This document shows, piece after piece, positions 9,908 to 35,733 of a DNA stretch of 39,263 nt. The DNA comes from Escherichia phage Penshu1, in sequence record MK903281.1; one strand, written 5' to 3'. The notes beneath the pieces are model-generated. The model was given only the letters and a program-made list of their open reading frames with translations, was not told the DNA's origin and searched no databases. How positions within the stretch are numbered: the first letter of the stretch is position 1; every line of letters begins with the position of its first letter. A program made the position numbers and the translations under genes.

Positions 9908-10131
9908 TGACTCAGGAAGTTAAGGTCGTTCGTCAGCGTCTGACCATTGATAAAATCCCGGTGGGCTATGCGTTTATCATCCACGGTAAGCCGGGTGAAG
10001 TGTACGTGAAGATTAGTAACTCTCACGTCTTCAACCATAAGTTACTCCAGATGCACACCACGGATGCTAACCGCTTCCAGCGTCATCTGAACCTCGTAGC
10101 TGTAGAGCTGGTGGTGTACGATGGTGAGTAA
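9907..10131 (+). CDS. Hypothetical protein, 74 aa
   Basis: ATG at 9907 overlaps the gene 3 stop, with AAGGAG 7 nt upstream; no recognisable motif. Confidence 0.5.
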   Translation: MTQEVKVVRQRLTIDKIPVGYAFIIHGKPGEVYVKISNSHVFNHKLLQMHTTDANRFQRHLNLVAVELVVYDGE

Positions 10132-10579
10132 GGTGAAATTCAACCCACGGTCCCGGACTGACGCTATCTTCGTTCACTGTTCGGCTACCAAGCCAGAGAT
10201 GGACATAGGGGTAGAGACCATCCGTATGTGGCACAAGCAGCAAGGATGGCTGGACGTAGGCTACCACTTTATCATCAAGCGCGATGGTACTGTGGAAGAG
10301 GGACGCCCGGTCAATGTCGTAGGGTCACACGTTAAGGATTGGAACTCCAAGTCCGTAGGCGTCTGCCTTGTAGGTGGAATTGACGCCAAGGGCAAGTTTG
10401 AAGCTAACTTCACTCCGGACCAGATGAACTCCCTGCGCAACAAGCTGGCTGACCTGAAGGCCCTGTATCCTCAGGCAGAGATAAAAGCACACCATGACGT
10501 AGCACCAAAGGCGTGTCCAAGTTTCGACTTGCAACGCTGGCTGTCTACCAATGAGCTGGTCACTTCCGACCGTGGTTAA
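10121..10579 (+). CDS. N-acetylmuramoyl-L-alanine amidase / lysozyme (T7 gene 3.5 homologue), 152 aa
   Basis: TDAIFVHCSATKP, GWLDVGYHFIIKRDGTVE, AHH(D/E)VAPKACPSFDL and C-terminal NELVTSDRG are near-identical to T7 lysozyme. Confidence 0.92.
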   Translation: MVSKVKFNPRSRTDAIFVHCSATKPEMDIGVETIRMWHKQQGWLDVGYHFIIKRDGTVEEGRPVNVVGSHVKDWNSKSVGVCLVGGIDAKGKFEANFTPDQMNSLRNKLADLKALYPQAEIKAHHDVAPKACPSFDLQRWLSTNELVTSDRG

Positions 10580-25304: not shown

Positions 25305-25763
25305 ATGTATATTCGCAAGGCTGCGGAACAGGATGTCCACTACTTTCTGTGGCATCTTTCAGAAGATGATGTTAATGAGTGCAAAGCAAACTACGGGTCA
25401 ACCGTGGGTCTCTCTGAAAGACTGCTTAAGCACCTATCTCCGTCATCTGTGGTTTTAACGAACGGTGTAGGTGAAGTGTTTGCCTATGGTGGAAACCAAG
25501 GGGATAACGTATGGTTCTTGACTTCCGGTCTGGTCTACAAGCTGGGGCCTAAAGAGAAGCGAGAGTTCATAAAGCGTATCTCTGAGTACAGGGACTTAAT
25601 GTTAGACCAATACGGGACCATCTGGAACTACGTGTGGTCAGGCAATAAGTCTCACATTAAATTCTTGAAGTTGCTTGGGGCTAAGTTCCATGATGATTGG
25701 ACTGTAAGTCCGGTAACTGGTGAGCGTTTTCAACTATTCACTATCTCTAAGGAGCAAAGATGA
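25305..25763 (+). CDS. Gene 13-position protein (internal virion/assembly protein homologue by synteny), 152 aa
   Basis: ORF with AAGGAG RBS immediately downstream of the phi13-like promoter; function assigned by position only. Confidence 0.55.
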   Translation: MYIRKAAEQDVHYFLWHLSEDDVNECKANYGSTVGLSERLLKHLSPSSVVLTNGVGEVFAYGGNQGDNVWFLTSGLVYKLGPKEKREFIKRISEYRDLMLDQYGTIWNYVWSGNKSHIKFLKLLGAKFHDDWTVSPVTGERFQLFTISKEQR

Positions 25764-26146
25764 CCAAGGTTTGTACAGTCTGTAAGATTGAGAAGCCTCG
25801 CTCTGCGTTCTCCCCACGGAAGGACTCAAAGTGTGGTATCCGTTCGGCCTGTAAGTTGTGCCACAATGGTCGAAGCCATAAGAACAAAGGATACGAAAAG
25901 TATCACCTAACTCAGGACGAGTACGATTCAATCCTCAGGTCTCAGGACGGAGTGTGCGCTATATGCAAAACTTCAGGACCTAGCCGAGGGCTATGCGTGG
26001 ACCACTGCCATGACTCCGGTAAGGTGCGTGGTATTCTGTGCCACACCTGCAACCTTAAGCTGACACGTAGAAACTATCCGTCCACCTGCGACAATTTCGA
26101 CGAGAAGGCTGCTGAGTATCTGGCTGGTAGCCGGAAGGGGGATTAG
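25760..26146 (+). CDS. Endonuclease VII-like (His-Me finger / HNH superfamily) putative homing endonuclease, 128 aa
   Basis: GVCAICKTSGPSRGLCVDHCHDSGKVRGILCHTCNLKL matches the T4 Endo VII core (CLICQ...HLDHDH...GKVRGLLCNLCN); N-terminal CxxC...C...C zinc motif; inserted between genes 13 and 14. Confidence 0.8.
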   Translation: MTKVCTVCKIEKPRSAFSPRKDSKCGIRSACKLCHNGRSHKNKGYEKYHLTQDEYDSILRSQDGVCAICKTSGPSRGLCVDHCHDSGKVRGILCHTCNLKLTRRNYPSTCDNFDEKAAEYLAGSRKGD

Positions 26147-26173: not shown

Positions 26174-26737
26174 ATGGGTGTCATGGCTGTAGCCGGGGCC
26201 ACTATGTCCGCGTCCCAACAGGCCAAGGCAGAGGGAGCTGCTATTGACGCTCAGAACCGACAGGCTCAGGAGATGATTAAGCAGATGAACTACTCCGACG
26301 CCAACCTGAAGATGCAAGAGCGAGACCTTAAGAATCAGCAGGTCGCTGAGCTGACCGAGACGACTCTGAATGGTATCCGCAATCAGGGAATGGTCCGTGC
26401 AGCAGTGGCTGAGTCCGGTCTGGAAGGAAACTCCATGAACCGCATTGAGCGCTCAGTGGAAGGCGACACCGTGAAAGAACGTGCTGGCATCACCGAAAGT
26501 TACGACCGCGACTATGCGACTATCTTCGGGAACCGTATCGCCAACATTGAGAACACCAAGTCTGCTATCCGTGGTCAAGGTAAAATCATCAAGACCAGCC
26601 CACTAGCTCATGCACTTAATGTTGCTAACGCCGGGATGCAGGGATACGCTGCTGGTGAGTCAATCTCTGGGGCATCAAGCTCTGGGGGTGCTGCACCGAT
26701 TAGTGCTGCTAAAGGCACACCTACAGGTCATAGCTAA
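26174..26737 (+). CDS. Internal virion protein (T7 gene 14 homologue), 187 aa
   Basis: Collinear similarity to T7 gp14 (SGLEGNSMNRIER, YDRDYATIFG, C-terminal AAKGTPTG); weak RBS, probably displaced by the upstream endonuclease insertion. Confidence 0.8.
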   Translation: MGVMAVAGATMSASQQAKAEGAAIDAQNRQAQEMIKQMNYSDANLKMQERDLKNQQVAELTETTLNGIRNQGMVRAAVAESGLEGNSMNRIERSVEGDTVKERAGITESYDRDYATIFGNRIANIENTKSAIRGQGKIIKTSPLAHALNVANAGMQGYAAGESISGASSSGGAAPISAAKGTPTGHS

Positions 26738-26748
26738 GAGGAGGACTA

Positions 26749-29031
26749 ATGGCTAGTAATATTGAATCAGCTCTGGCTAATCGGACTATGGGTCGTGGCA
26801 GAGCGCCGGGTAAAACTATCGCCGTCAACTATCAAGCAGCCAACGTTCAGGCTCCGACTGGCGACTCCGGGCTGGCTCGTGCGTTAACTAACTTCGTTGA
26901 GTCTGGGACTGGATTGTATAAGCAGTTCAAGGACGAGGAGAAGACCAGAGCTGACGAGCGGTCTAACGAGATTATCCGTAAGTTGACACCTCAGCAAAGA
27001 CGTGAGGCTATCCAGAACGGCACACTGCTGTATCAGGATGACCCTTACGCTATGGAAGCACTTCGAGTCAAGACGGGACGTAACGCTGCCTTTGCGGTGG
27101 ATGACGAGATTAACGTTAAGATTCAGAACGGTGAGTTCCGTACACGTCAGGAAATGGAAGAGTATCGCCACCAGCGACTTCAGGACGCCGCTAAGTCCTA
27201 TGCTGAAGAGGCAGGTATTAACCCTACAGATGAGTTCTTCCAGCGCGGGTTCAACGATAACATCACAGACCGCAACATCGCTATCTATGGGTCTTTCAAT
27301 AAGTATTTCAGCAAGCAGTCTGAAGAGACAGCAATGTTGAACACTCGTATTGAGATGAACTCATTCCTGAACGATGGCGACCTGATGCGTTCACCTGAGT
27401 CCGGTAAGACCTTCATGGCCTACCTTCGTGATGGCCTGACTACTGCTGCTATCCCTTCGGACCAGCGAGCACGGGAGGTCATTACCCAGACGGTCCGTGA
27501 CGCAATCCAGAAGTCAGGAGGCTCAAACTTCCTACAGCAAGTCCGTGGCGAGCGTATCACCCTTAACGGCGTTGACGCTACAGTCGAAGAGATTGTAGGA
27601 CCTGATGTCTTCAACGCTGCTATTGTTGAGGCACAAGGCACCGAGTACAAGCTGGTGGCTAAGTATCAGGAAGACTTAGCGTTAGGCGTTCAGTCTGCGA
27701 TTCTTCAGGACGACCCAACCATTGGTCTTGCCCAGATTCAGAAACTCAAGGAGCAGAACAACCTGCTTCAGCCGGGTGAAGAACTCACGCCTCAGCGTCA
27801 GATGCTTATTAATGCCGAAGCCAGCTTACTGGAAGCGGTCAAGCGTAAGTCTGCTGAACAGGCGAAGGAGAACAAGAAGTTAATCCAGACCCAGAACAAG
27901 CAACTGGTCATTGACCAAGTTTATCAGCGACGTCTGGCTGGGGACAACGTGTCCACCAATTATGAGGACCTTCCGGTCTCTGAAGCTACAGGAGAGTTCA
28001 AGCGTTCAGACATGAACAACTATGCGTCTACTAAGCTACAGCAGATTGACCAGATGGACATCCCTGAAGCGGCTAAAGACGCGCAGAAGGTGGCATTGTT
28101 AAGGGCTGACACTAACAATGGTCCGTTCCGTAATGCCTTCCAGACGCTGACTCAGGACGCTGCTGGAGAGTGGCAAGCTGCGGTCATCCGTGGACAGTAC
28201 GACCCAGACAAGATGCAACGCTTCGAATCTCTTCGTCGTGCCTACACTCAGGACCCTTCAAGTTTTGCTGCGCTGTATCCTGACCAAGCTCAATTGTTCT
28301 CTACGTTCGACCAGATGGACAAGATGGGTCTGGACCCTCAGACGATGATTGAAGCTGATAAGCAAGCTGCAAGTCAAAGCCGTGAGATGCGCATGGAGTC
28401 AGACAAGGCGTGGCAGGAGTTGAAGAACGACTCCAAGAACACCCAGTTGTCTCGCCTCCCAACGTCTCTGGACTCAAGTGCTCGTAAGGTCTGGGACTCA
28501 TGGTACTATCGTACAGGTAACGCTGACGCTGCAACTCAGCAGACTCAACGCTGGCTGAATGAAAATACCGTAACGTTCCAGTCTGAAGGTTCTGACGGTA
28601 AGTCAATCGGCATGGTGTCCAAGCATCAACTGATGGTCGGGGACAACCCAGAGTCGTGGCAGGTTGGTCGAGACATTATCGACACCGCTCGTAAGCAGCT
28701 CATTAAGGCCAACCCTTGGGTAGTGAACTCTCAGTTGTCCGTTGTTGAACAGAACGGCTCTGTCTTCCTTCAGGACGCTACCGGGACCATTCGCATCCGC
28801 TACGATAAGGAACTGGTAGGCAAACTGTACCGTGAACAGCAGAAGCAAGCTGAGGATAAAGCCTACGCTGAAGCTGAGCGTACAGCCAACACCCGCGCTC
28901 GCATTGTCGAGACTAAAGCGGCTGGTGATAAACGTAGAGCCGAGCGTGAAGGTAACATCCAGAAACGAGGCGGTCTGTACAGTGATGTCTCGCTGGAGGG
29001 TATCGCAAACACCTTAATCGGTAAGGAGTAA
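26749..29031 (+). CDS. Internal virion protein (T7 gene 15 homologue), 760 aa
   Basis: ERSNEIIRKLTPQQRREAIQNGTLLYQDDPYAMEALRVKTGRNAA is near-identical to T7 gp15; similarity continues along the length. Confidence 0.9.
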   Translation: MASNIESALANRTMGRGRAPGKTIAVNYQAANVQAPTGDSGLARALTNFVESGTGLYKQFKDEEKTRADERSNEIIRKLTPQQRREAIQNGTLLYQDDPYAMEALRVKTGRNAAFAVDDEINVKIQNGEFRTRQEMEEYRHQRLQDAAKSYAEEAGINPTDEFFQRGFNDNITDRNIAIYGSFNKYFSKQSEETAMLNTRIEMNSFLNDGDLMRSPESGKTFMAYLRDGLTTAAIPSDQRAREVITQTVRDAIQKSGGSNFLQQVRGERITLNGVDATVEEIVGPDVFNAAIVEAQGTEYKLVAKYQEDLALGVQSAILQDDPTIGLAQIQKLKEQNNLLQPGEELTPQRQMLINAEASLLEAVKRKSAEQAKENKKLIQTQNKQLVIDQVYQRRLAGDNVSTNYEDLPVSEATGEFKRSDMNNYASTKLQQIDQMDIPEAAKDAQKVALLRADTNNGPFRNAFQTLTQDAAGEWQAAVIRGQYDPDKMQRFESLRRAYTQDPSSFAALYPDQAQLFSTFDQMDKMGLDPQTMIEADKQAASQSREMRMESDKAWQELKNDSKNTQLSRLPTSLDSSARKVWDSWYYRTGNADAATQQTQRWLNENTVTFQSEGSDGKSIGMVSKHQLMVGDNPESWQVGRDIIDTARKQLIKANPWVVNSQLSVVEQNGSVFLQDATGTIRIRYDKELVGKLYREQQKQAEDKAYAEAERTANTRARIVETKAAGDKRRAEREGNIQKRGGLYSDVSLEGIANTLIGKE

Positions 29032-29036
29032 CAATT

Positions 29037-32000
29037 ATGGCGACTCGTGGTATTCGCAACAACAACATCGGGAACATTCGCGTTTCCAAGGACCAATGGG
29101 AAGGAGCTACGGGTGATGACGGAGCGTTCGTGACTTTCGACACCCCAGACTCCGGTGTACGCGCTCTGGCGAAGAACCTGATGTCATATGGTCGACAGGG
29201 CTATGACTCAATCGAGAAGATTATCACCAGATGGGCACCGCCTAACGAGAACGATACTCAGGCGTACATTCAGTCCGTGGCTTCGGCTACGGGCATCCCG
29301 GCAACTCAAAGTCTCGACCTGACGGACCCGGATGTCCTCGCCTCTCTGTCTGAGGCTATCGGCTACCATGAGACTGGCTCTCGCTACGATAAGTCTGTCT
29401 ATCAGGCTGGCGTGGGCCGTGCTCTGGGAGGTGGCATCAGCCCAAAGACTCCACCAGTAAGCGCTAACGTATTTGACGCACTCACGGAAGGACTCAAGGC
29501 TAAACCTAAAGTAACTCTGGGTGAGAGCCTTCCGACCGCTGCTGGTCTGAACATTGAGGGTCAAACACCTGAAGCTCCCAACGAATCGTTCGGTGAGATG
29601 TTCTATAAGGCTACTGGTGAGACCATGCAGGAACGAGAGGACCGCTCTACGTGGTTCGGTTTCGGTGCGGCTACAGAAGCTGAAGTGAAGAACTCTATGG
29701 TCGGCGTGGCTATCAGAGCTGGTCAGACTGAGGACTCACTGGATGTCATTGGCGATGTGTTCAACCCAACCCGATGGAATAGCCATAAGTGGTCTCGTGA
29801 GGAGCTGGACCAGATTCGTAACGCTGGGGTCCTGCCTCAGTATTACGGGGTCATTACTGGTGGCTCCCCTCAGAACCTGACCGAGCTTATTAACTTGGCG
29901 CTTGAGAACCAGAAGTTGGACCAAGAGAAGGCCAAGGCAGGGATTGGTGCTCAGTTAGCCGCTGGTGTGATTGGTGCTGGTGTAGACCCGCTGACCTACG
30001 TTCCTATCGCTGGACAGGTTGGCAAAGGTGGTAAGCTGGTCAACAAGATGTTCACCGTGGCTGCTCAATCTGGAGCACTGGCTGGTGTGTCCGAGATGGC
30101 CCGTACCTCAGTGGCTGGTGGTGATGCCCATGTGGCTGAAGCTATCCTTGGTGGTGCTCTCTTCGGTGGCGGTATGACTGCTATCGCTGATGGGTTAGGC
30201 AGAGCCTTGGGTCGCAACACTAATGAGTTTGCTGGTCCAGCTACACGTTTGGAAGCTCGTGAGACCGCTCGTAACGTTGATGGTCAGGACCTGTCTCGTC
30301 TCCCTATTCAGGAAGGTGAGCAGACCTTTAGTCATCAAGGAGTTAAGTTCGCTGAAGTCCCGAATGAGCCGGGTAGTGTACGACTTGAAGATGGTTCAAT
30401 CCTGATTGGTGAGAACCCTCTGAACCCTAAGACACGTCAAGTCTTTGACGAAGTGATTGAGCCTGAACGTGCTGCTGCTGGTGTGAACCTTGGTGGGCTG
30501 ACTGAGATTGGCCTGAAGCTGCTTCGGTCCGAGAACCCTGAGATTCGTGGAGTAGCTGCTGACTTAGTGCGTTCACCAACTGGTATGCAGTCTGGGGCTT
30601 CAGGTAAAATCGGGACCACTGCGTCAGACGTATTCGAGAGACTTCGTGCTGTGGACCATCGGTTCTACAACGACATCGACGATGCGGTTACTGAGGCGCT
30701 CAAGGACCCATACTTCCAGACAGCATTCTGGCGAGACTCTGGCGCATTCCGTCAGGACATCTACCAGCGCGTGTCTATGGCTATCGAAGATGGTAGCGGA
30801 AACCTGAAGGCTGAACTGACTCCGGGAGAACTGAAAGTCTATGACCTGCTGAAGAACCAGTTTGACGCAAAGCGTGAGATGATGGAGAACCCAGCGATGT
30901 TTGGTCGTACAGACGCTCAGTCTATCTTTCCGGGTAGTAGATTCAAGGGGACCTACGTCCCGCATGTGTATAGCAACCAGATGAAGGAGCTGTACATCAA
31001 GGAGCTTGGAAGTCCAGAGGCACTACAGGAGGCCATCAAGAAGTCATGGTTGACCAGCTATGCGTCAAGACCTGAAGTCAAGAAACGTGTGGACGAGGCA
31101 CTCTTAGAGGCTGACCCTACGTTGACTCCAGATGGACTTGCGGCTGCGGTCGATAAGTACGCCAACGATAAGGCTTACGGTATCTCCCATACAGAGCAGT
31201 TCGAGCGTTCATCCGTAATGGAAGAGAACATCAATGGTCTGGTGGGTCTGGAGAACAACAGCTTCCTTGAGGCTCGTAACCTGTTCGACAGCGATATGTC
31301 AATAGTTCTTCCTAATGGTCAAACCTTCAGTGTCAACAACCTGCGTGAGTGGGACATGGACAAGATTGTCCCGGCCTACAACCGTCGAGTTAATGGTGAT
31401 ATTGCTATCATGGCTGGTACAGGCAAGACAACGAAGGACATGAAGGACTTGGTTGAGACCATGATGAACAAGGCAGGGGATGACGGAAAGTTGAAAGGTG
31501 AGGTCTCGACCTTACGTGACACCTTGAAGATTCTCACTGGTCGTGCTCGACGTGATGGTTCTGATGATGCAGCCTTAGCTACAGTGATGCGCACAATGAC
31601 AGACCTATCGTTCTTCGCTAAGAATGCCTACATGGGTGTTCAGAACTTAACGGAGATTGGTGGTATGCTGGCTCGTGGTAACGTTCGTGCACTGCTTCAT
31701 GGAGTCCCGATGTTCCGTGACCTAGCATTCCGTAACAAGAAGGTAGGAGCTTCAGAGATTAAGGCCCTGCACAATGTTATCTTCGGTAAGGAACTGGATG
31801 ACTCAATCCGTCCGTCTAAACAGGATGTCATTGACCGTCTGCGCTCCTATAGCGACCTAGGTCGTGGGGCAGCTACGGCTTTAGGCTCCGCCAAGTATTA
31901 CACTGGTGAACTTGCAGTACGCTCTCCGTTCACTAAAGTCCTCAACGGTACGACCAACTACCTGTTAGATGCTGGACGTCAAGGATTCCTGTCTGACATC

Positions 32001-32927
32001 GTGGAGCATAGCCTGACTGGTAGTAAGCGTAAGTTCGATGACCGATGGCTGAAGACCGCTGGTATCTCTGACGAGCAATGGAATGGCATTAAGTCCCTAA
32101 TCCGTGAGTCAGTGACTCGTGGGCCAGACGGGAAGTACACCATCAAGGATAAGAAGGCGTTCAGTAAGGACCCAAGGGCTATGGACCTGTGGCGTATGGG
32201 TGACACCATCGCTGATGAAACGTTACTACGACCTCATAAGCTGTCCAACATGGACGCCAAGGCTTATGGTACTATCGCTAAGACTGTCCTTCAGTTTAAG
32301 AACTTCGTCATCAAGTCCATCAATGGACGTACCATGCGAACCTTCTATAACGCCACGAAGAACAACCGAGCGATGGACGCTGCTCTGTCCACTGTGATAT
32401 CGATGGGTCTTGCTGGTGTCTACTACATGGCTCAGGCTCACGTCAAGGCTTACGCTATGCAGGATGGTCGAGACCGTGATTACCTCAAGCAAGCTCTTGA
32501 CCCGACTATGATTGGTTATGCGGCTCTATCCCGTAGCTCACACTTGGGTGGCCCACTTGGGGTCGCCAACATTCTGGGTGGCATCGCTGGGTATGAGGAC
32601 ACTAAGTTACTCCGCTCGTCTATCCTTCCGCGCTCACCTACCGAGAAGACTGAGAAGCCAATCGCCTTTGGTGCGGCTACAAGTGACCCTGTGATGAATG
32701 TTGTTGGTAACTTCTTGGAGCAGGTTCCAGCTTTCGGATATGCTGCTAACGTTGGCTCTTCGGCTTACAACTTGGCTGGCTACCTCAAGGCTGATACTCG
32801 TGTCAACGAGCGTGACTACATGACCGGGATGTATAATACGTTCCGTGAACTGGTTCCGAACGACCCCATTACCCAGAAGCTGTTACTTGGAACGTTTGAG
32901 GAGCAAGGTATCCACATCAAGGACTAA
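29037..32927 (+). CDS. Internal virion protein (T7 gene 16 homologue) with a divergent N-terminal domain, 1296 aa
   Basis: From about residue 200 onward collinear with T7 gp16 (RSTWFGF, TRWNSH, VITGGSPQNL, GAGVDPLTYVP, MENPAMFG, KGTYVPHVY); the first ~200 aa do not resemble the T7 lytic-transglycosylase N-terminus. Confidence 0.9.
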   Translation: MATRGIRNNNIGNIRVSKDQWEGATGDDGAFVTFDTPDSGVRALAKNLMSYGRQGYDSIEKIITRWAPPNENDTQAYIQSVASATGIPATQSLDLTDPDVLASLSEAIGYHETGSRYDKSVYQAGVGRALGGGISPKTPPVSANVFDALTEGLKAKPKVTLGESLPTAAGLNIEGQTPEAPNESFGEMFYKATGETMQEREDRSTWFGFGAATEAEVKNSMVGVAIRAGQTEDSLDVIGDVFNPTRWNSHKWSREELDQIRNAGVLPQYYGVITGGSPQNLTELINLALENQKLDQEKAKAGIGAQLAAGVIGAGVDPLTYVPIAGQVGKGGKLVNKMFTVAAQSGALAGVSEMARTSVAGGDAHVAEAILGGALFGGGMTAIADGLGRALGRNTNEFAGPATRLEARETARNVDGQDLSRLPIQEGEQTFSHQGVKFAEVPNEPGSVRLEDGSILIGENPLNPKTRQVFDEVIEPERAAAGVNLGGLTEIGLKLLRSENPEIRGVAADLVRSPTGMQSGASGKIGTTASDVFERLRAVDHRFYNDIDDAVTEALKDPYFQTAFWRDSGAFRQDIYQRVSMAIEDGSGNLKAELTPGELKVYDLLKNQFDAKREMMENPAMFGRTDAQSIFPGSRFKGTYVPHVYSNQMKELYIKELGSPEALQEAIKKSWLTSYASRPEVKKRVDEALLEADPTLTPDGLAAAVDKYANDKAYGISHTEQFERSSVMEENINGLVGLENNSFLEARNLFDSDMSIVLPNGQTFSVNNLREWDMDKIVPAYNRRVNGDIAIMAGTGKTTKDMKDLVETMMNKAGDDGKLKGEVSTLRDTLKILTGRARRDGSDDAALATVMRTMTDLSFFAKNAYMGVQNLTEIGGMLARGNVRALLHGVPMFRDLAFRNKKVGASEIKALHNVIFGKELDDSIRPSKQDVIDRLRSYSDLGRGAATALGSAKYYTGELAVRSPFTKVLNGTTNYLLDAGRQGFLSDIVEHSLTGSKRKFDDRWLKTAGISDEQWNGIKSLIRESVTRGPDGKYTIKDKKAFSKDPRAMDLWRMGDTIADETLLRPHKLSNMDAKAYGTIAKTVLQFKNFVIKSINGRTMRTFYNATKNNRAMDAALSTVISMGLAGVYYMAQAHVKAYAMQDGRDRDYLKQALDPTMIGYAALSRSSHLGGPLGVANILGGIAGYEDTKLLRSSILPRSPTEKTEKPIAFGAATSDPVMNVVGNFLEQVPAFGYAANVGSSAYNLAGYLKADTRVNERDYMTGMYNTFRELVPNDPITQKLLLGTFEEQGIHIKD

Positions 32928-32991: not shown

Positions 32992-35733
32992 ATGTCCACG
33001 ATTACACAATTCCCTTCAGGCAACACTCAGCACAGGATTGAGTTCGACTATCTAGCCAGACCATTTGTTGTTGTAACTCTGGTTAATAGCTCTAACCCTA
33101 CCCTGAACCATGTGCTGGAAGCGGGTCGAGATTACCGATTCCTTAATCCAACTATGATTGAAATATTGGCTGACCAATCAGGTTTCGACATCGTTCGTAT
33201 TCACCGTCAGACTGGAACTGACTTAGTGGTAGACTTCCGCGATGGCTCGGTGCTGACAGCTAATGACCTGACCAATGCAGAGCTTCAGGCTATCCATATT
33301 GCAGAAGAAGGTCGAGACCAAACGGTTGACTTAGCGAAGGAATATGCCGATGCTGCTGGTATCTCTGCTGGTAACGCTAAGGATAGCGAGAACGAAGCAC
33401 GACGTATCGCTGAGAGTATCAAGACTGCTGGTCTGATGGGTTACATTACTCGTCGCTCCTTCGAGAAAGGCTTCAACATTACCGCATGGAACGAGGCCCT
33501 GCTGTGGGAAGCTGATGGGAACTACTACCGCTGGGATGGAACATTACCTAAGAACGTGCCTGTGGGCTCTACACCTGAGGCCACTGGTGGAGTTGGTAAA
33601 GGTAAGTGGCTTTCGGTCGGAGACGCAACGTTGCGCACTGAGATGCTTCGTGGTCGCTTCAAGTTCGAGGGAGCTGAGTCTGTCTACTATGTCCCGAACA
33701 TCAACTTCAACACTTCGGTAGATAACCGAGCCGCTGCTTATGCGTTTGCCAGTAAGATTTACATCCCTCGTGATGTGACCATCCGTGTGAACCTGCTGCC
33801 AGACGACGATGTTCGTAAGTTTGTAGGTGAGGGTAAACTCATTGTCAAGAACCAGTTCTATGGAGGTGACATGCTGTTTGACGTAGAGAAGGCGACAAAT
33901 GGTAATGGACGCTCGGTCAAGGATGTACTGATGAGCGCTTACAGTCGTCAGGCCTACGGAGTGGCTGACGTTGGTATCGTTGGCGACTCTATCACCGATG
34001 GTGCGTGGGGTAAACAGAACTGGGCGTCCCCACCTCTTACCCCAGAACGTGACCTTCAGGCTCCTATTGATTATGATCACAGTCTGTCTGGTGGTTCACA
34101 CTCATGGTGCGCGCACTGGGAATACCTGATGAACGCTGTTCAGTCACGCTTCTCCGCCGAGGCTATCTTCAAGATTAAGAACGCCTCTCTGTCTGGTGCT
34201 AGGCTGAGTGACGGCTGGGGCTACCGTAACTTCGACCGTGGGTTCTTCGGTAATATCCGCTATGGTGCAAAAGCTCCGAACATCTGCATTCTGGCTATGG
34301 GCTGGAACGACAGCAGCGCTAACAGCGATACTTACCGCGACCAGATTGACATGTTCGTCCGTAAGGCGTGGGGATATGGTTGCACCGTTGGTATCGTGAC
34401 TGTAAATGACAACGACCCGCACCGCATGGGCTTCGAGGCAGACACAAAGCGTCAGATGTGCAATCGTCTTGGAATCGACTACTTCAACCTAGGTCCTGAC
34501 CTGACGGAAATCAGTAACAAGACCATGCATGATATGGAGTGGTATTACACCAAGAAAGACCCAGCGTGGGACACAACGCACCCTCAGGAGCTTGGACAGA
34601 TGGTAATGGGAAACGCAATGTTCATGCAGACAGTAGGCGAGAAGTATGTACGCCGGGTCAAATCAGGGGATGTAATTACTCCTGCTGTGGTTGAAAGCTA
34701 TTGGGATGCAGTCACTTACCCATCGCACAACCACCTGAAGCCAGCCTATGGTAAGACTGGTGGTACTCCAGTTCTGGACTCGCTGAAGTATCTTCCTATG
34801 GCATCTACTGCTGGTGAGAACGTAACGTTCACCACTTTAGTCTGGTGCGAGGAGAACGATATGTCCCTGACGGTCTTTGAGCCGTGGACTGGTAACGGCA
34901 AGGTAGGGGATTATAACCACGTCAAGGTTATCAACCCAGCGGGCAAGGACTTGGACATTAATGACCCAGTTTATGGAGCCAGAAACACCACGGTAAACAA
35001 TGAGCGCATCCTGCGTCAGGGGAAGTTAGCCTCTAGCTGGCTTGGTGGTGGTAAGAGCTTAACTACCTACGTAGGCCGACTGCGTAAGGGCTTAAACCAG
35101 ATTAACATCGTTAATGGTGGTCAGCTTCCCACTGTTTGGTATCCAGCCCTGAAGTTTGGCACGTCCAACAATGACGGCATCCACATCCCGATGACACGAC
35201 GGGGTATTGGTGTCTCCGCTCTTCCTACAGCACTATACGCAGATGGTAACAAGTTCGAAGACTACATGCTTAGCAACGTTATGTCTGGACGTAAAGGCTC
35301 CCTCACGGCTGACGCTTATGCTCAGCAGGGTACGCTGGTGGGTCGAGTATACGTTAAGTCCGGACTGAAGAAGTCAGTATACTTGGCGTTGAACTGGAAT
35401 CCAATTATGAACACAGCGGTCCTCCTTGGCGTGGCCTCTGATGGTCGACTGGCGGTGGGTACGTGGAATGGTGGTGAGCCTACTGACTGGAAGGTCCTGA
35501 CGTCTGCATATCAGGGCGACTTCACGGACAAAGGTTTTACAGTGTATCACTACACCCAGGTCTCCGATGGTTCTCATCTTTTTACTCTGACTACTGATGA
35601 CGGAACTGTTAAAGACGCTAACGTGTTTACGACACTTACTGCTACATCCGGTGTCGTCGGGCTCCTGAACCGAGTAGGAGGCTCGAAGATTGTGGAAGTA
35701 GAGGCGAACTACACGCTGACTAGCGTAGGGTAA
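32992..35733 (+). CDS. Tail fibre / tailspike with gp17-type N-terminal anchor and an internal SGNH (GDSL) esterase domain, 913 aa
   Basis: N-terminus ([14 protein letters not shown]...DYRF...[16 protein letters not shown]...IHIAEEGRD) matches the T7 gp17 tail-attachment domain. SGNH blocks: GDSITDG (Ser codon 33988-33990), GWND (34300-34311) and DTTHP (34570-34584). Confidence 0.85.

Follow-up and report, generated by a model that had tools for sequence, protein, structure and literature searches.

The N-terminal 131 residues of gp16 from Escherichia phage Penshu1 are not homologous to the SLT domain of T7 gp16. We suggest, with a probability of about 0.8, that they form an Enc34-type (PHA02564) peptidoglycan glycoside hydrolase, which took the place of the SLT head by non-orthologous domain displacement, was fixed in the Kayfunavirus lineage and is still an exchangeable cassette. 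Since relatives of this domain degrade Gram-negative peptidoglycan, our best reading is that the wall-cutting head was replaced while its role in DNA ejection stayed unchanged. Hundreds of Kayfunavirus records, including the GenBank entry of Penshu1, name gp16 'peptidoglycan (lytic) transglycosylase', and the main value of this analysis lies in a correction, namely that the head is an Enc34-type glycosidase usually mislabelled as a transglycosylase. The novelty is low; this kind of domain has already been characterized, and the exact protein is already in GenBank.

Gene 16 and the boundary of its head module

The window is the whole stretch of DNA analysed, 39,263 nucleotides from Penshu1, which is a T7-like phage of the K1F-like Kayfunavirus type. 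The features of the gene 16 region are as follows.

26749..29031, + strand: gene 15 homologue, internal virion protein C, 760 aa (phrog_1339, E=0)
29023..29028, + strand: AAGGAG ribosome-binding site within the 3' end of gene 15, separated from the gene 16 ATG by 8 nt (read from the sequence)
29037..32927, + strand: gene 16 homologue, internal virion (ejection) protein D, 1296 aa (ORF list and translation)
29037..29429, + strand: head module, aa 1-131, Enc34/PHA02564-type putative peptidoglycan glycosidase domain in place of the T7 SLT domain
29430..29657, + strand: linker or 'molecular tape', aa 132 to ~207, homologous to the T7 gp16 tape and retained, not swapped

The product of 29037..32927 belongs to the gp16/internal virion protein D family (phrog_342, E=0), and an exact-sequence look-up identified all 1296 residues as GenBank QEG09816.1 of Penshu1. 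PDB chain 9vvp_L is near-identical to this protein and aligns over residues 1-1296; no relevant publication for PDB 9vvp came up in a literature search. The gene order gp13-gp14-gp15-gp16-gp17 is kept, with neighbours that match phrog_308, phrog_805 and phrog_1339 and with the tailspike gene next, and the spacer between genes 15 and 16 is 5 nt. The gene 15 product, with which gp16 pairs in the ejectosome tunnel, is 46.7% identical to T7 gp15 over residues 3-720, and a Pfam scan of it revealed no hydrolase domain.

When we compared Penshu1 gp16 with T7 gp16 using BLASTP, collinearity began at Penshu1 residue 132 (GGISPK), which corresponds to T7 residue 158 (GGITPK). Residues 132-1296 are 53% identical to T7 residues 158-1315, and BLASTP gave no alignment upstream of Penshu1 residue 132, indicating that the replaced module comprises aa 1-131 (nt 29037-29429). 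Penshu1 gp16 also aligns with the T7 gp16 chain 7eyb_I over residues 130-1295. The homology resumes where the T7 transglycosylase domain ends, and the adjoining T7 'molecular tape' (residues 157-228), which binds gp15 in the periplasmic tunnel, is the counterpart of Penshu1 residues 132 to ~207 (PMC8954989 for the T7 limits). In the AlphaFold2 model, the pLDDT values were above 94 for residues 1-130 and ~50-66 for residues 131-200; the low values are consistent with an extended tape segment and agree with a boundary at residue 131.

The general layout of the protein is shared with T7 gp16 (PDB 7eyb, 7k5c). The gene lies after those of gp14 and gp15 and before the tail fibre or tailspike gene, and a wall-cutting head is followed by a gp15-binding tape and a membrane/cytoplasmic body. 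The heads themselves are different, since that of T7 is an SLT/GH23 domain of 156 aa, whereas that of Penshu1 is a non-homologous Enc34-type domain of 131 aa. The head end at residue 131 together with the conserved GGI[S/T]PK junction provides a clean module boundary, which is useful when chimeras are constructed or when a small putative muralytic domain of 131 aa for Gram-negative bacteria is to be mined.

Identity of the head domain

We searched the head for SLT-type signals. Pfam SLT (PF01464) gave no match at E<=1 to residues 1-201 or to whole gp16, and Pfam and NCBIfam scans of both returned no match, while T7 gp16, used as a positive control, matched Pfam SLT at residues 15-127 with E=1.7e-31. 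When a 27-sequence alignment of the head was compared with T7 gp16 residues 1-156 by hhalign, the probability was 0.16% (E=0.37), and a Pfam scan of all 27 members yielded a single match, a spurious one to Peptidase_C39. The Enc34-type head domain is covered by no curated Pfam or NCBIfam model.

On the other hand, the head matched the Enc34 endolysin domain 7q47_A with E=3.5e-13 over query residues 3-122 in a phmmer search, and phrog_873 with E=4.6e-50. The three-dimensional model of the head is a predicted one (AlphaFold2), built from 27 sequences; it is all-helical, contains ~130 residues and superposes on 7q47, which was its sole significant Foldseek PDB match. Beyond Enc34, the nearest structural neighbours, below Foldseek PDB significance, were GH73 glucosaminidases and not GH23 enzymes. 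Alignment to 7q47 placed three residues of the Enc34 endolysin, with roles as described in PMC8943055, on the following codons.

29232..29234, + strand: codon for W66, counterpart of Enc34 Trp79, which positions the substrate
29265..29267, + strand: codon for Y77, equivalent to Enc34 Tyr95
29370..29372, + strand: codon for E112 (motif HETGS versus HENGS), counterpart of Glu131, the catalytic residue of the Enc34 endolysin

All three residues are invariant in our alignment A1. The preliminary description had noted an N-terminus lacking the T7 SLT signature and proposed a swap of the peptidoglycan-degrading head. Both points agree with our results, as domain search and structure prediction led to a non-homologous Enc34/PHA02564-type glycosidase domain with Glu, Tyr and Trp in place, and an SLT profile alignment failed to appear. 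The extent given there needs to be revised, however, since collinearity with T7 gp16 was placed at about residue 200 and the replaced block was taken as about 200 aa, while the BLASTP start (132/158) and the drop in pLDDT leave only 131 aa non-homologous to the T7 SLT domain.

The closest characterized proteins are ORF39 of the Hafnia phage Enc34 (PDB 7q47; CDD PHA02564, 'virion protein') and M4Lys of the Salmonella phage BSPM4. Both are lysis-cassette endolysins, in which this domain is the enzyme and a transmembrane segment at the C-terminus serves as an anchor. In Penshu1, by contrast, the domain forms the N-terminal end of a virion ejection protein of 1296 aa, and it would act when infection begins, from outside. 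The Penshu1 head is only 32-38% identical to them and carries Ile instead of Pro at position 11. A literature search found no paper joining Enc34 or M4Lys with gp16 or internal virion proteins.

Higher identities (45-55%) were observed to domains in a Uetakevirus internal protein, in free-standing 138-aa proteins and in proteins of 841-920 aa, and residues 348-478 of a vB_EcoP_PAS61 protein are 52.7% identical to the head. The Uetakevirus (epsilon15-like) internal protein of 935 aa, phrog_873, phrog_992, phrog_2276 (tape measure) and phrog_7182 ('tail injection transglycosylase') resemble Penshu1 gp16 in having an Enc34-type domain in a protein that is co-delivered with DNA. In those carriers, however, the domain is internal or C-terminal in unrelated proteins, while in Penshu1 it is N-terminal on a T7-type gp16. 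The ejection proteins of SP6, K1-5, K1E and phiKMV likewise indicate that podovirus ejectosomes carry their peptidoglycan hydrolase as a mobile module, although there it is of a lysozyme family and sits on a different core protein or in a different position (PMC8954989, PMC5380687). The gp16 head of Penshu1 is a further well-resolved case in which the wall-cutting module of a podovirus ejectosome was displaced by a non-orthologous one.

Putative activity and bond specificity

A C-terminally truncated Enc34 ORF39 is lytic for E. coli, P. aeruginosa and H. alvei cells with permeabilised outer membranes, and its authors did not obtain a substrate complex (PMC8943055). M4Lys without its transmembrane domain degrades purified peptidoglycan and strips GlcNAc from muropeptides, and it also gave an endopeptidase signal that was left unexplained (PMC7143992). 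Enc34-type relatives are probably N-acetylglucosaminidases. By extrapolation from relatives at 32-38% identity, we infer an enzymatic activity, a bond specificity and an entry role for the Penshu1 head, which would probably cut the GlcNAc-(1,4)-MurNAc bond as an N-acetylglucosaminidase, like M4Lys and the GH73 neighbours. The T7 gp16 head acts on the MurNAc-GlcNAc bond by lytic transglycosylation. The Penshu1 head would differ from it in probably cutting the other glycosidic bond, and by hydrolysis.

We regard it as unlikely that the head cleaves peptidoglycan with the other specificity, as a lytic transglycosylase or muramidase on MurNAc-GlcNAc, although the GenBank name 'peptidoglycan lytic exotransglycosylase' implies this. 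The Enc34 fold has been argued to share ancestry with both GH23 (phiKZ gp144, MltC) and GH73, with the catalytic Glu superposing throughout (PMC8943055). In addition, a single acidic catalytic residue is identified, as in GH23, and transglycosylase names are borne by many database records. However, because the head has no SLT signal, these names were most plausibly transferred from T7 gp16 via the homologous body; the neighbours of the predicted head model after Enc34 belong to GH73, and the sole product analysis in the family, that of M4Lys, showed loss of GlcNAc (PMC7143992).

It is very unlikely that the head is now mainly structural, with little or no catalysis, serving as the 'wings' of the periplasmic tunnel that gp15 and gp16 form, or as a packing element of the core. 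Under many conditions T7 can do without its transglycosylase, and the Penshu1 head may accordingly add little to ordinary infections in the laboratory. In T7 gp16 the N-terminal domain builds the tunnel wings, and only certain states of the wall require its activity (PMC8954989). Moreover, the gp16 head of Providencia phage PSTRCR_120 has Leu for the conserved Trp, showing that some gp16 heads tolerate changes of the signature. Nevertheless, E112 and Y77 are kept in 79/79 domains (78 viral-contig loci plus Penshu1) and W66 in 78/79, and the conserved residues line the Enc34 groove rather than a generic surface. The dN/dS between the two head alleles is 0.07-0.09 despite a dS of 1.7-2.0, indicating that the head is functional and is under purifying selection as strong as that on the body.

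Distribution, hosts and entry

The distribution was obtained by tblastn against a phage collection and from IMG/VR loci. At >=60% identity, the head was found in 223 phage records and the body, in a separate count that matches, also in 223. Other gp16 bodies numbered ~1050, against ~1030 full-length SLT heads. A homologous-protein search with the head retrieved only short free-standing proteins of 130-225 aa and none of the gp16 proteins. The Enc34-type head is thus a normal, genus-wide trait of Kayfunavirus and not a peculiarity of Penshu1, while the SLT (GH23) head is carried by T7, T3, KP32 and gh-1-type phages. The Enc34-type head occurs in phages of E. coli, Salmonella, Enterobacter and Klebsiella, and these hosts are common to SLT-headed relatives.

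The preliminary description had further read the new head as an adaptation to a different cell-wall chemistry or entry mechanism, which we consider highly improbable. O-acetylated MurNAc blocks lytic transglycosylases and muramidases, and a change from a lytic transglycosylase to a probable glucosaminidase could in principle matter on such a modified glycan. However, since both head types occur in phages of the same enterobacteria, which have the same peptidoglycan type, a different wall chemistry is unsupported, and the conservation of gp14, gp15 and the tape and body of gp16 speaks against a different entry mechanism. The idea that no swap took place and that the N-terminus is a highly diverged SLT domain sharing an ancestor with the T7 head is effectively refuted: at the superfamily level both domains are lysozyme-like alpha-lobe folds with a catalytic Glu, but relative to GH23 the core helices of Enc34 show a circular permutation (PMC8943055), the Pfam SLT and hhalign comparisons failed, domains 45-55% identical to the head lie in unrelated phage proteins, and the boundary to the conserved remainder of gp16 is sharp.

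The proposed entry mechanism is mostly modelled on T7. Indirect evidence for a place in the virion comes from a gp16 homologue detected by mass spectrometry in virions of Kayfunavirus B1 (PMC12785254) and from the near-identical PDB chain 9vvp_L. By analogy with T7 we infer that Penshu1 gp16 is packaged in the internal core of the virion and expelled through the tail at infection. Its head would then reach the periplasm and cut glycan strands locally, with E112 as the catalytic acid and with Y77 and W66 positioning the sugar. The tape (aa 132 to ~207) and gp15 would subsequently build the trans-periplasmic tunnel, and the C-terminal body would insert into the inner membrane. K1F-like phages are used in therapy and engineering, where it matters that the entry hydrolase is of a different enzyme class.

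Recombinant patch and head alleles

Sliding-window identity and mismatch maps of the region revealed a mosaic structure, and the motif around residue 11 marks the head allele.

28755..29438 (about), + strand: recombinant patch, ~680 bp, running from ~93 codons before the end of gene 15 across the 5-nt spacer and the head of gene 16; 'group B' sequence in a 'group A' (K1F/PSK1-like) backbone
29067..29069, + strand: codon for I11, motif RNNN-I-GN (family consensus RNNN-P-GN), marker of the 'group B' (Enterobacter-phage-type) head allele

Penshu1 is 95-99% identical to PSK1 outside the patch and 68-79% inside, whereas its identity to Enterobacter phage vB_Ecl_MII_002 is ~80% outside and 91-98% inside. 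Relative to PSK1, dS is 1.67 in the head and 0.16 in the body. These identities point to a second, Enterobacter-phage-like Kayfunavirus lineage ('group B') as the source of the patch. The right breakpoint falls at the head boundary, and the pattern recurs across 23 full-length IMG/VR Kayfunavirus loci, which provides a well-resolved example of ongoing within-genus exchange of the wall-cutting module. We also considered that recombination always respects the domain boundary and rejected this, since one locus (L009) has a hybrid head, indicating that breakpoints also occur inside the head.

Pro occupies position 11 in 104/108 motif-bearing homologues, while Ile is found in 9/23 Kayfunavirus loci. 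This recurrence, together with identical DNA at this site in vB_Ecl_MII_002, led us to reject a sequencing error as the origin of NNNIGN in Penshu1.

It is a long shot that the C-terminus of gp15 and the gp16 head form a separately circulating cassette, with selection instead of neutral mosaicism separating and reshuffling its P11 'group A' and I11 'group B' alleles. If this were true, the ejectosome head would be a determinant of host range or defence evasion that acts after adsorption. Such selection might come from inhibitors, either periplasmic or encoded by prophages, that act on the incoming hydrolase, or from modified glycans on which a GlcNAc-MurNAc cutter does better than a lytic transglycosylase.

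Finally, we considered whether the C-terminal tail of gp15 belongs to the block non-homologous to T7. The BLAST alignment ends at gp15 residue 720, yet a RAxIVxxTKA-type motif is common to both proteins by eye, which suggests that the gp15 tails of Penshu1 and T7 are probably diverged homologues.

Gene 16 and its neighbourhood

The 39,263-bp sequence is a complete T7-like genome, and its gene order from gp13 to the tailspike matches the T7 arrangement.

25305-25763: gp13, first of the T7-order cluster
25760-26146, + strand: Endonuclease VII-like ORF, 128 aa (Pfam Endonuclease_7, E=9e-18; phrog_2633)
26174-26737: gp14, 3' of the Endonuclease VII-like ORF
26749-29031: gp15, directly before gp16
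29037..32927, + strand: gene 16 (gp16 homologue), ORF of 1296 aa
32992-35733, + strand: tailspike, the gene 17 product, 913 aa, after gp16

Gene 16 is preceded at 8 nt by an AAGGAG ribosome-binding site within the 3' end of the preceding gene. Its product is identical in sequence to GenBank QEG09816.1, titled 'peptidoglycan transglycosylase [Escherichia phage Penshu1]', and falls in phrog_342, 'internal virion protein with endolysin domain' (E=0). The closest DNA relatives of 28500-30500 were 221 Kayfunavirus (K1F-like) records at ~89% identity, from phages of E. coli, Salmonella, Enterobacter, Klebsiella, and Citrobacter; the best match reached only 89.9% in a phage collection that apparently lacks a Penshu1 record.

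The Endonuclease VII-like ORF lies between gp13 and gp14, overlaps the gp13 stop codon, and resembles a homing endonuclease inserted among the internal virion protein genes; such an ORF is also present at the equivalent position in PSK1. In addition, the 14-mer AACTATCACTATAG occurs in 8 copies across the window, presumably as phage RNA-polymerase promoters, and comparing the two ends of the window revealed no exact terminal direct repeat.

Replacement of the transglycosylase domain

The preliminary description held that the gp16 N-terminus lacks the T7 lytic-transglycosylase signature, and Pfam, NCBIfam, and hhalign confirmed this. While the T7 gp16 control matched Pfam SLT, the lytic transglycosylase domain, at residues 15-127 (E=1.7e-31), the Pfam and NCBIfam scan of the Penshu1 protein gave zero matches even at E<=1, and a profile of 27 homologues of its N-terminal head aligned with T7 gp16 residues 1-156 at an hhalign probability of only 0.16%. 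The boundary had been placed too far downstream, at about residue 200. In BLASTP and phmmer, the T7 alignment starts at residues 130-132, which pair with T7 156-158 (GGISPK / GGITPK), and the two proteins are 53% identical from GGISPK to the C-terminus. In T7 gp16, the transglycosylase domain occupies residues 1-156 and is followed by the 'molecular tape' (residues 157-228), which fixes gp15 within the periplasmic tunnel (PMC8954989). This indicates that only amino acids 1-131 (nt 29037-29429), the head, were replaced and that the tape was kept. In the AlphaFold2 model, residues 1-130 are compact and helical (pLDDT >94), and the low confidence of residues 131-200 (~50-66) is consistent with an extended segment.

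The head is an Enc34-type domain

The head matched the catalytic domain of the Hafnia phage Enc34 endolysin ORF39 (PDB 7q47) by sequence over residues 3-122 (E=3.5e-13), and 7q47 was the sole significant PDB match of the head model in Foldseek (E=7.8e-10, probability 1.00). Classified in NCBI family PHA02564, the Enc34 domain lyses E. coli, P. aeruginosa, and H. alvei cells with permeabilised outer membranes, and its catalytic signature is Glu131, Tyr95, and Trp79 (PMC8943055). When aligned with 7q47, gp16 presents these residues as W66, Y77, and E112, which are invariant in the 27-sequence head alignment; across 79 domains (78 IMG/VR loci and the window), W66 is conserved in 78 and both Y77 and E112 in all. 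The dN/dS between the two Kayfunavirus head alleles is 0.07-0.09, indicating strong purifying selection. It is nearly certain that the head is an Enc34-type domain. It is detectable solely via PHROGs, CDD PHA02564, and PDB 7q47; Pfam-A (2025 copy) and NCBIfam release 20 contain no model for it, though it occurs in 764 phage records.

Proposed role in entry

With the T7 scheme as template (PMC8954989), gp16 would be ejected and its head would cut a local opening in the peptidoglycan, the tape and gp15 would next assemble the periplasmic tunnel, and the gp16 body would then pass into the inner membrane. The cutter would be a glycosidase of the Enc34 type instead of a GH23 lytic transglycosylase, and probably a hydrolytic glucosaminidase. 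This role is likely. A T7-type gp3.5 amidase is retained (10121-10579; Pfam Amidase_2) and is assigned to lysis, and a Pfam search of gp15 for a hydrolase domain found none, leaving the head as the sole candidate virion-associated wall hydrolase. The bond specificity is the weakest step of the explanation. The related domain of M4Lys, from Salmonella phage BSPM4, degraded purified peptidoglycan and removed GlcNAc from muropeptides (PMC7143992), from which the Enc34 authors concluded that the family are probably beta-N-acetylglucosaminidases (PMC8943055). For the domain assignment and the entry role together, we estimate a probability of about 0.8.

The economical reading of the replacement is functional equivalence, i.e. 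non-orthologous displacement. Nothing speaks for the earlier idea that the head was adapted to another wall chemistry or way of entry: the same enterobacteria serve as hosts for phages of both head types, and the remaining parts of the ejectosome are conserved.

Distribution of the head module

In three tblastn searches over 50,697 phage records, 764 records matched the Enc34-type head (223 at >=60% identity), 1275 matched the gp16 body (aa 201-600; 223 at >=60%, 1052 below), and 1222 matched the T7 SLT head (~1030 full length), the last set spanning T7, T3, KP32, Yersinia, Pectobacterium, and gh-1-like Pseudomonas phages. The equal counts of 223 indicate, as totals rather than record-by-record pairs, that head type tracks the Kayfunavirus clade.

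The module also has many other carriers: it is internal in a 935-aa Uetakevirus internal protein (residues 348-478, 52.7% identity) and in 841-920-aa proteins (residues 248-376), N-terminal in proteins >1450 aa, and part of PHROG families annotated as tape measure and as 'tail injection transglycosylase'. It further occurs as free-standing 135-160-aa proteins and in ~213-225-aa proteins with membrane anchors, which are endolysins.

Providencia phage PSTRCR_120, of another Studiervirinae lineage, carries the same head type on gp16. Between PSTRCR_120 and Penshu1 the heads are 41-46% identical, while the PSTRCR_120 gp16 body is only ~30% identical to T7 and Penshu1 alike. Within the comparison set, the Kayfunavirus heads are the nearest kin of the PSTRCR_120 head, which makes a gp16-to-gp16 transfer into the Kayfunavirus ancestor plausible. 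In this distant gp16 (L004 4965-8843), Leu replaces the conserved Trp (TRLSPPNEN) while Tyr and Glu are kept, and the active site may be altered or weakened.

Recent cassette exchange

Compared with E. coli phage PSK1, Penshu1 is 95-99% identical at the nucleotide level over gene 15 and the body part of gene 16; identity drops to 68-79% from ~28755 to 29438 and is back at 97-99% at 29449. Enterobacter phage vB_Ecl_MII_002 shows the opposite, with ~80% outside ~28755-29438 and 91-98% inside. The same two classes recur among 23 full-length IMG/VR Kayfunavirus loci compared with the window. Group A (K1F/PSK1-like, Pro11 head) shows 93-97% in the backbone and 74-80% in the gp15 C-terminus and head, whereas group B (Enterobacter-phage-type, Ile11 head) shows 80-85% in the backbone, 90-94% in the gp15 C-terminus, and 84-93% in the head; the gp15 C-terminus of vB_Ecl_MII_002 (GenBank) is 98.6% identical. 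Relaxed constraint as the cause of head divergence is excluded by dS against PSK1 (head 1.67, body 0.16). Based on the identity patterns and dS, Penshu1 is a group-A genome that gained ~680 bp from a group-B phage, and the exchange is recent. The patch spans the final ~93 codons of gene 15 and the head, and its right breakpoint (29426-29440) falls at the head/tape junction; the hybrid head of locus L009 indicates that breakpoints also occur away from the domain boundary. Ile at position 11 (NNNIGN, family NNNPGN) is a mere marker of the group-B allele.

Relation to previous work and neighbouring observations

The protein is already deposited, a chain near-identical to this gp16 is in the PDB (9vvp_L), and the domain family is characterised biochemically and structurally. 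Hydrolase-module mobility among podovirus ejection proteins is also an established theme (PMC8954989, PMC5380687), and the gp16 head swap is ordinary and explained. Our literature search found no paper that explicitly places the head of Kayfunavirus gp16 in the Enc34 family, and many database records wrongly name gp16 a lytic transglycosylase; what is gained in practice is a correct annotation and a well-defined limit of the module.

The gene 17 product joins a T7 tail-fibre N-terminal adaptor to tailspike domains like those of phage G7C gp63.1, among them an SGNH/GDSL esterase region, which suggests an O-antigen-deacetylating tailspike. From ~nt 33500 on, the gene shows no relationship to its spike counterparts in PSK1 and vB_Ecl_MII_002 (identity <50%), indicating a second swapped module adjoining gp16.

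Among the IMG/VR Kayfunavirus loci, L026 has a gp16 frame of 1462 aa and L028 one of at least 1461 aa that extends past the locus end, against the usual ~1295; in GenBank phage TM1, the 28500-30500 match is in two pieces with an HNH homing endonuclease annotated under it. Insertions or fused frames may thus exist in or beside gene 16 of some relatives. Finally, the vB_Ecl_MII_002 record (PQ039553.1) is 78.7 kb with a large annotated repeat region, two matches to the head, and several ejection-protein genes in fragments, and looks as if a ~39 kb genome had been assembled in duplicate or as a concatemer.
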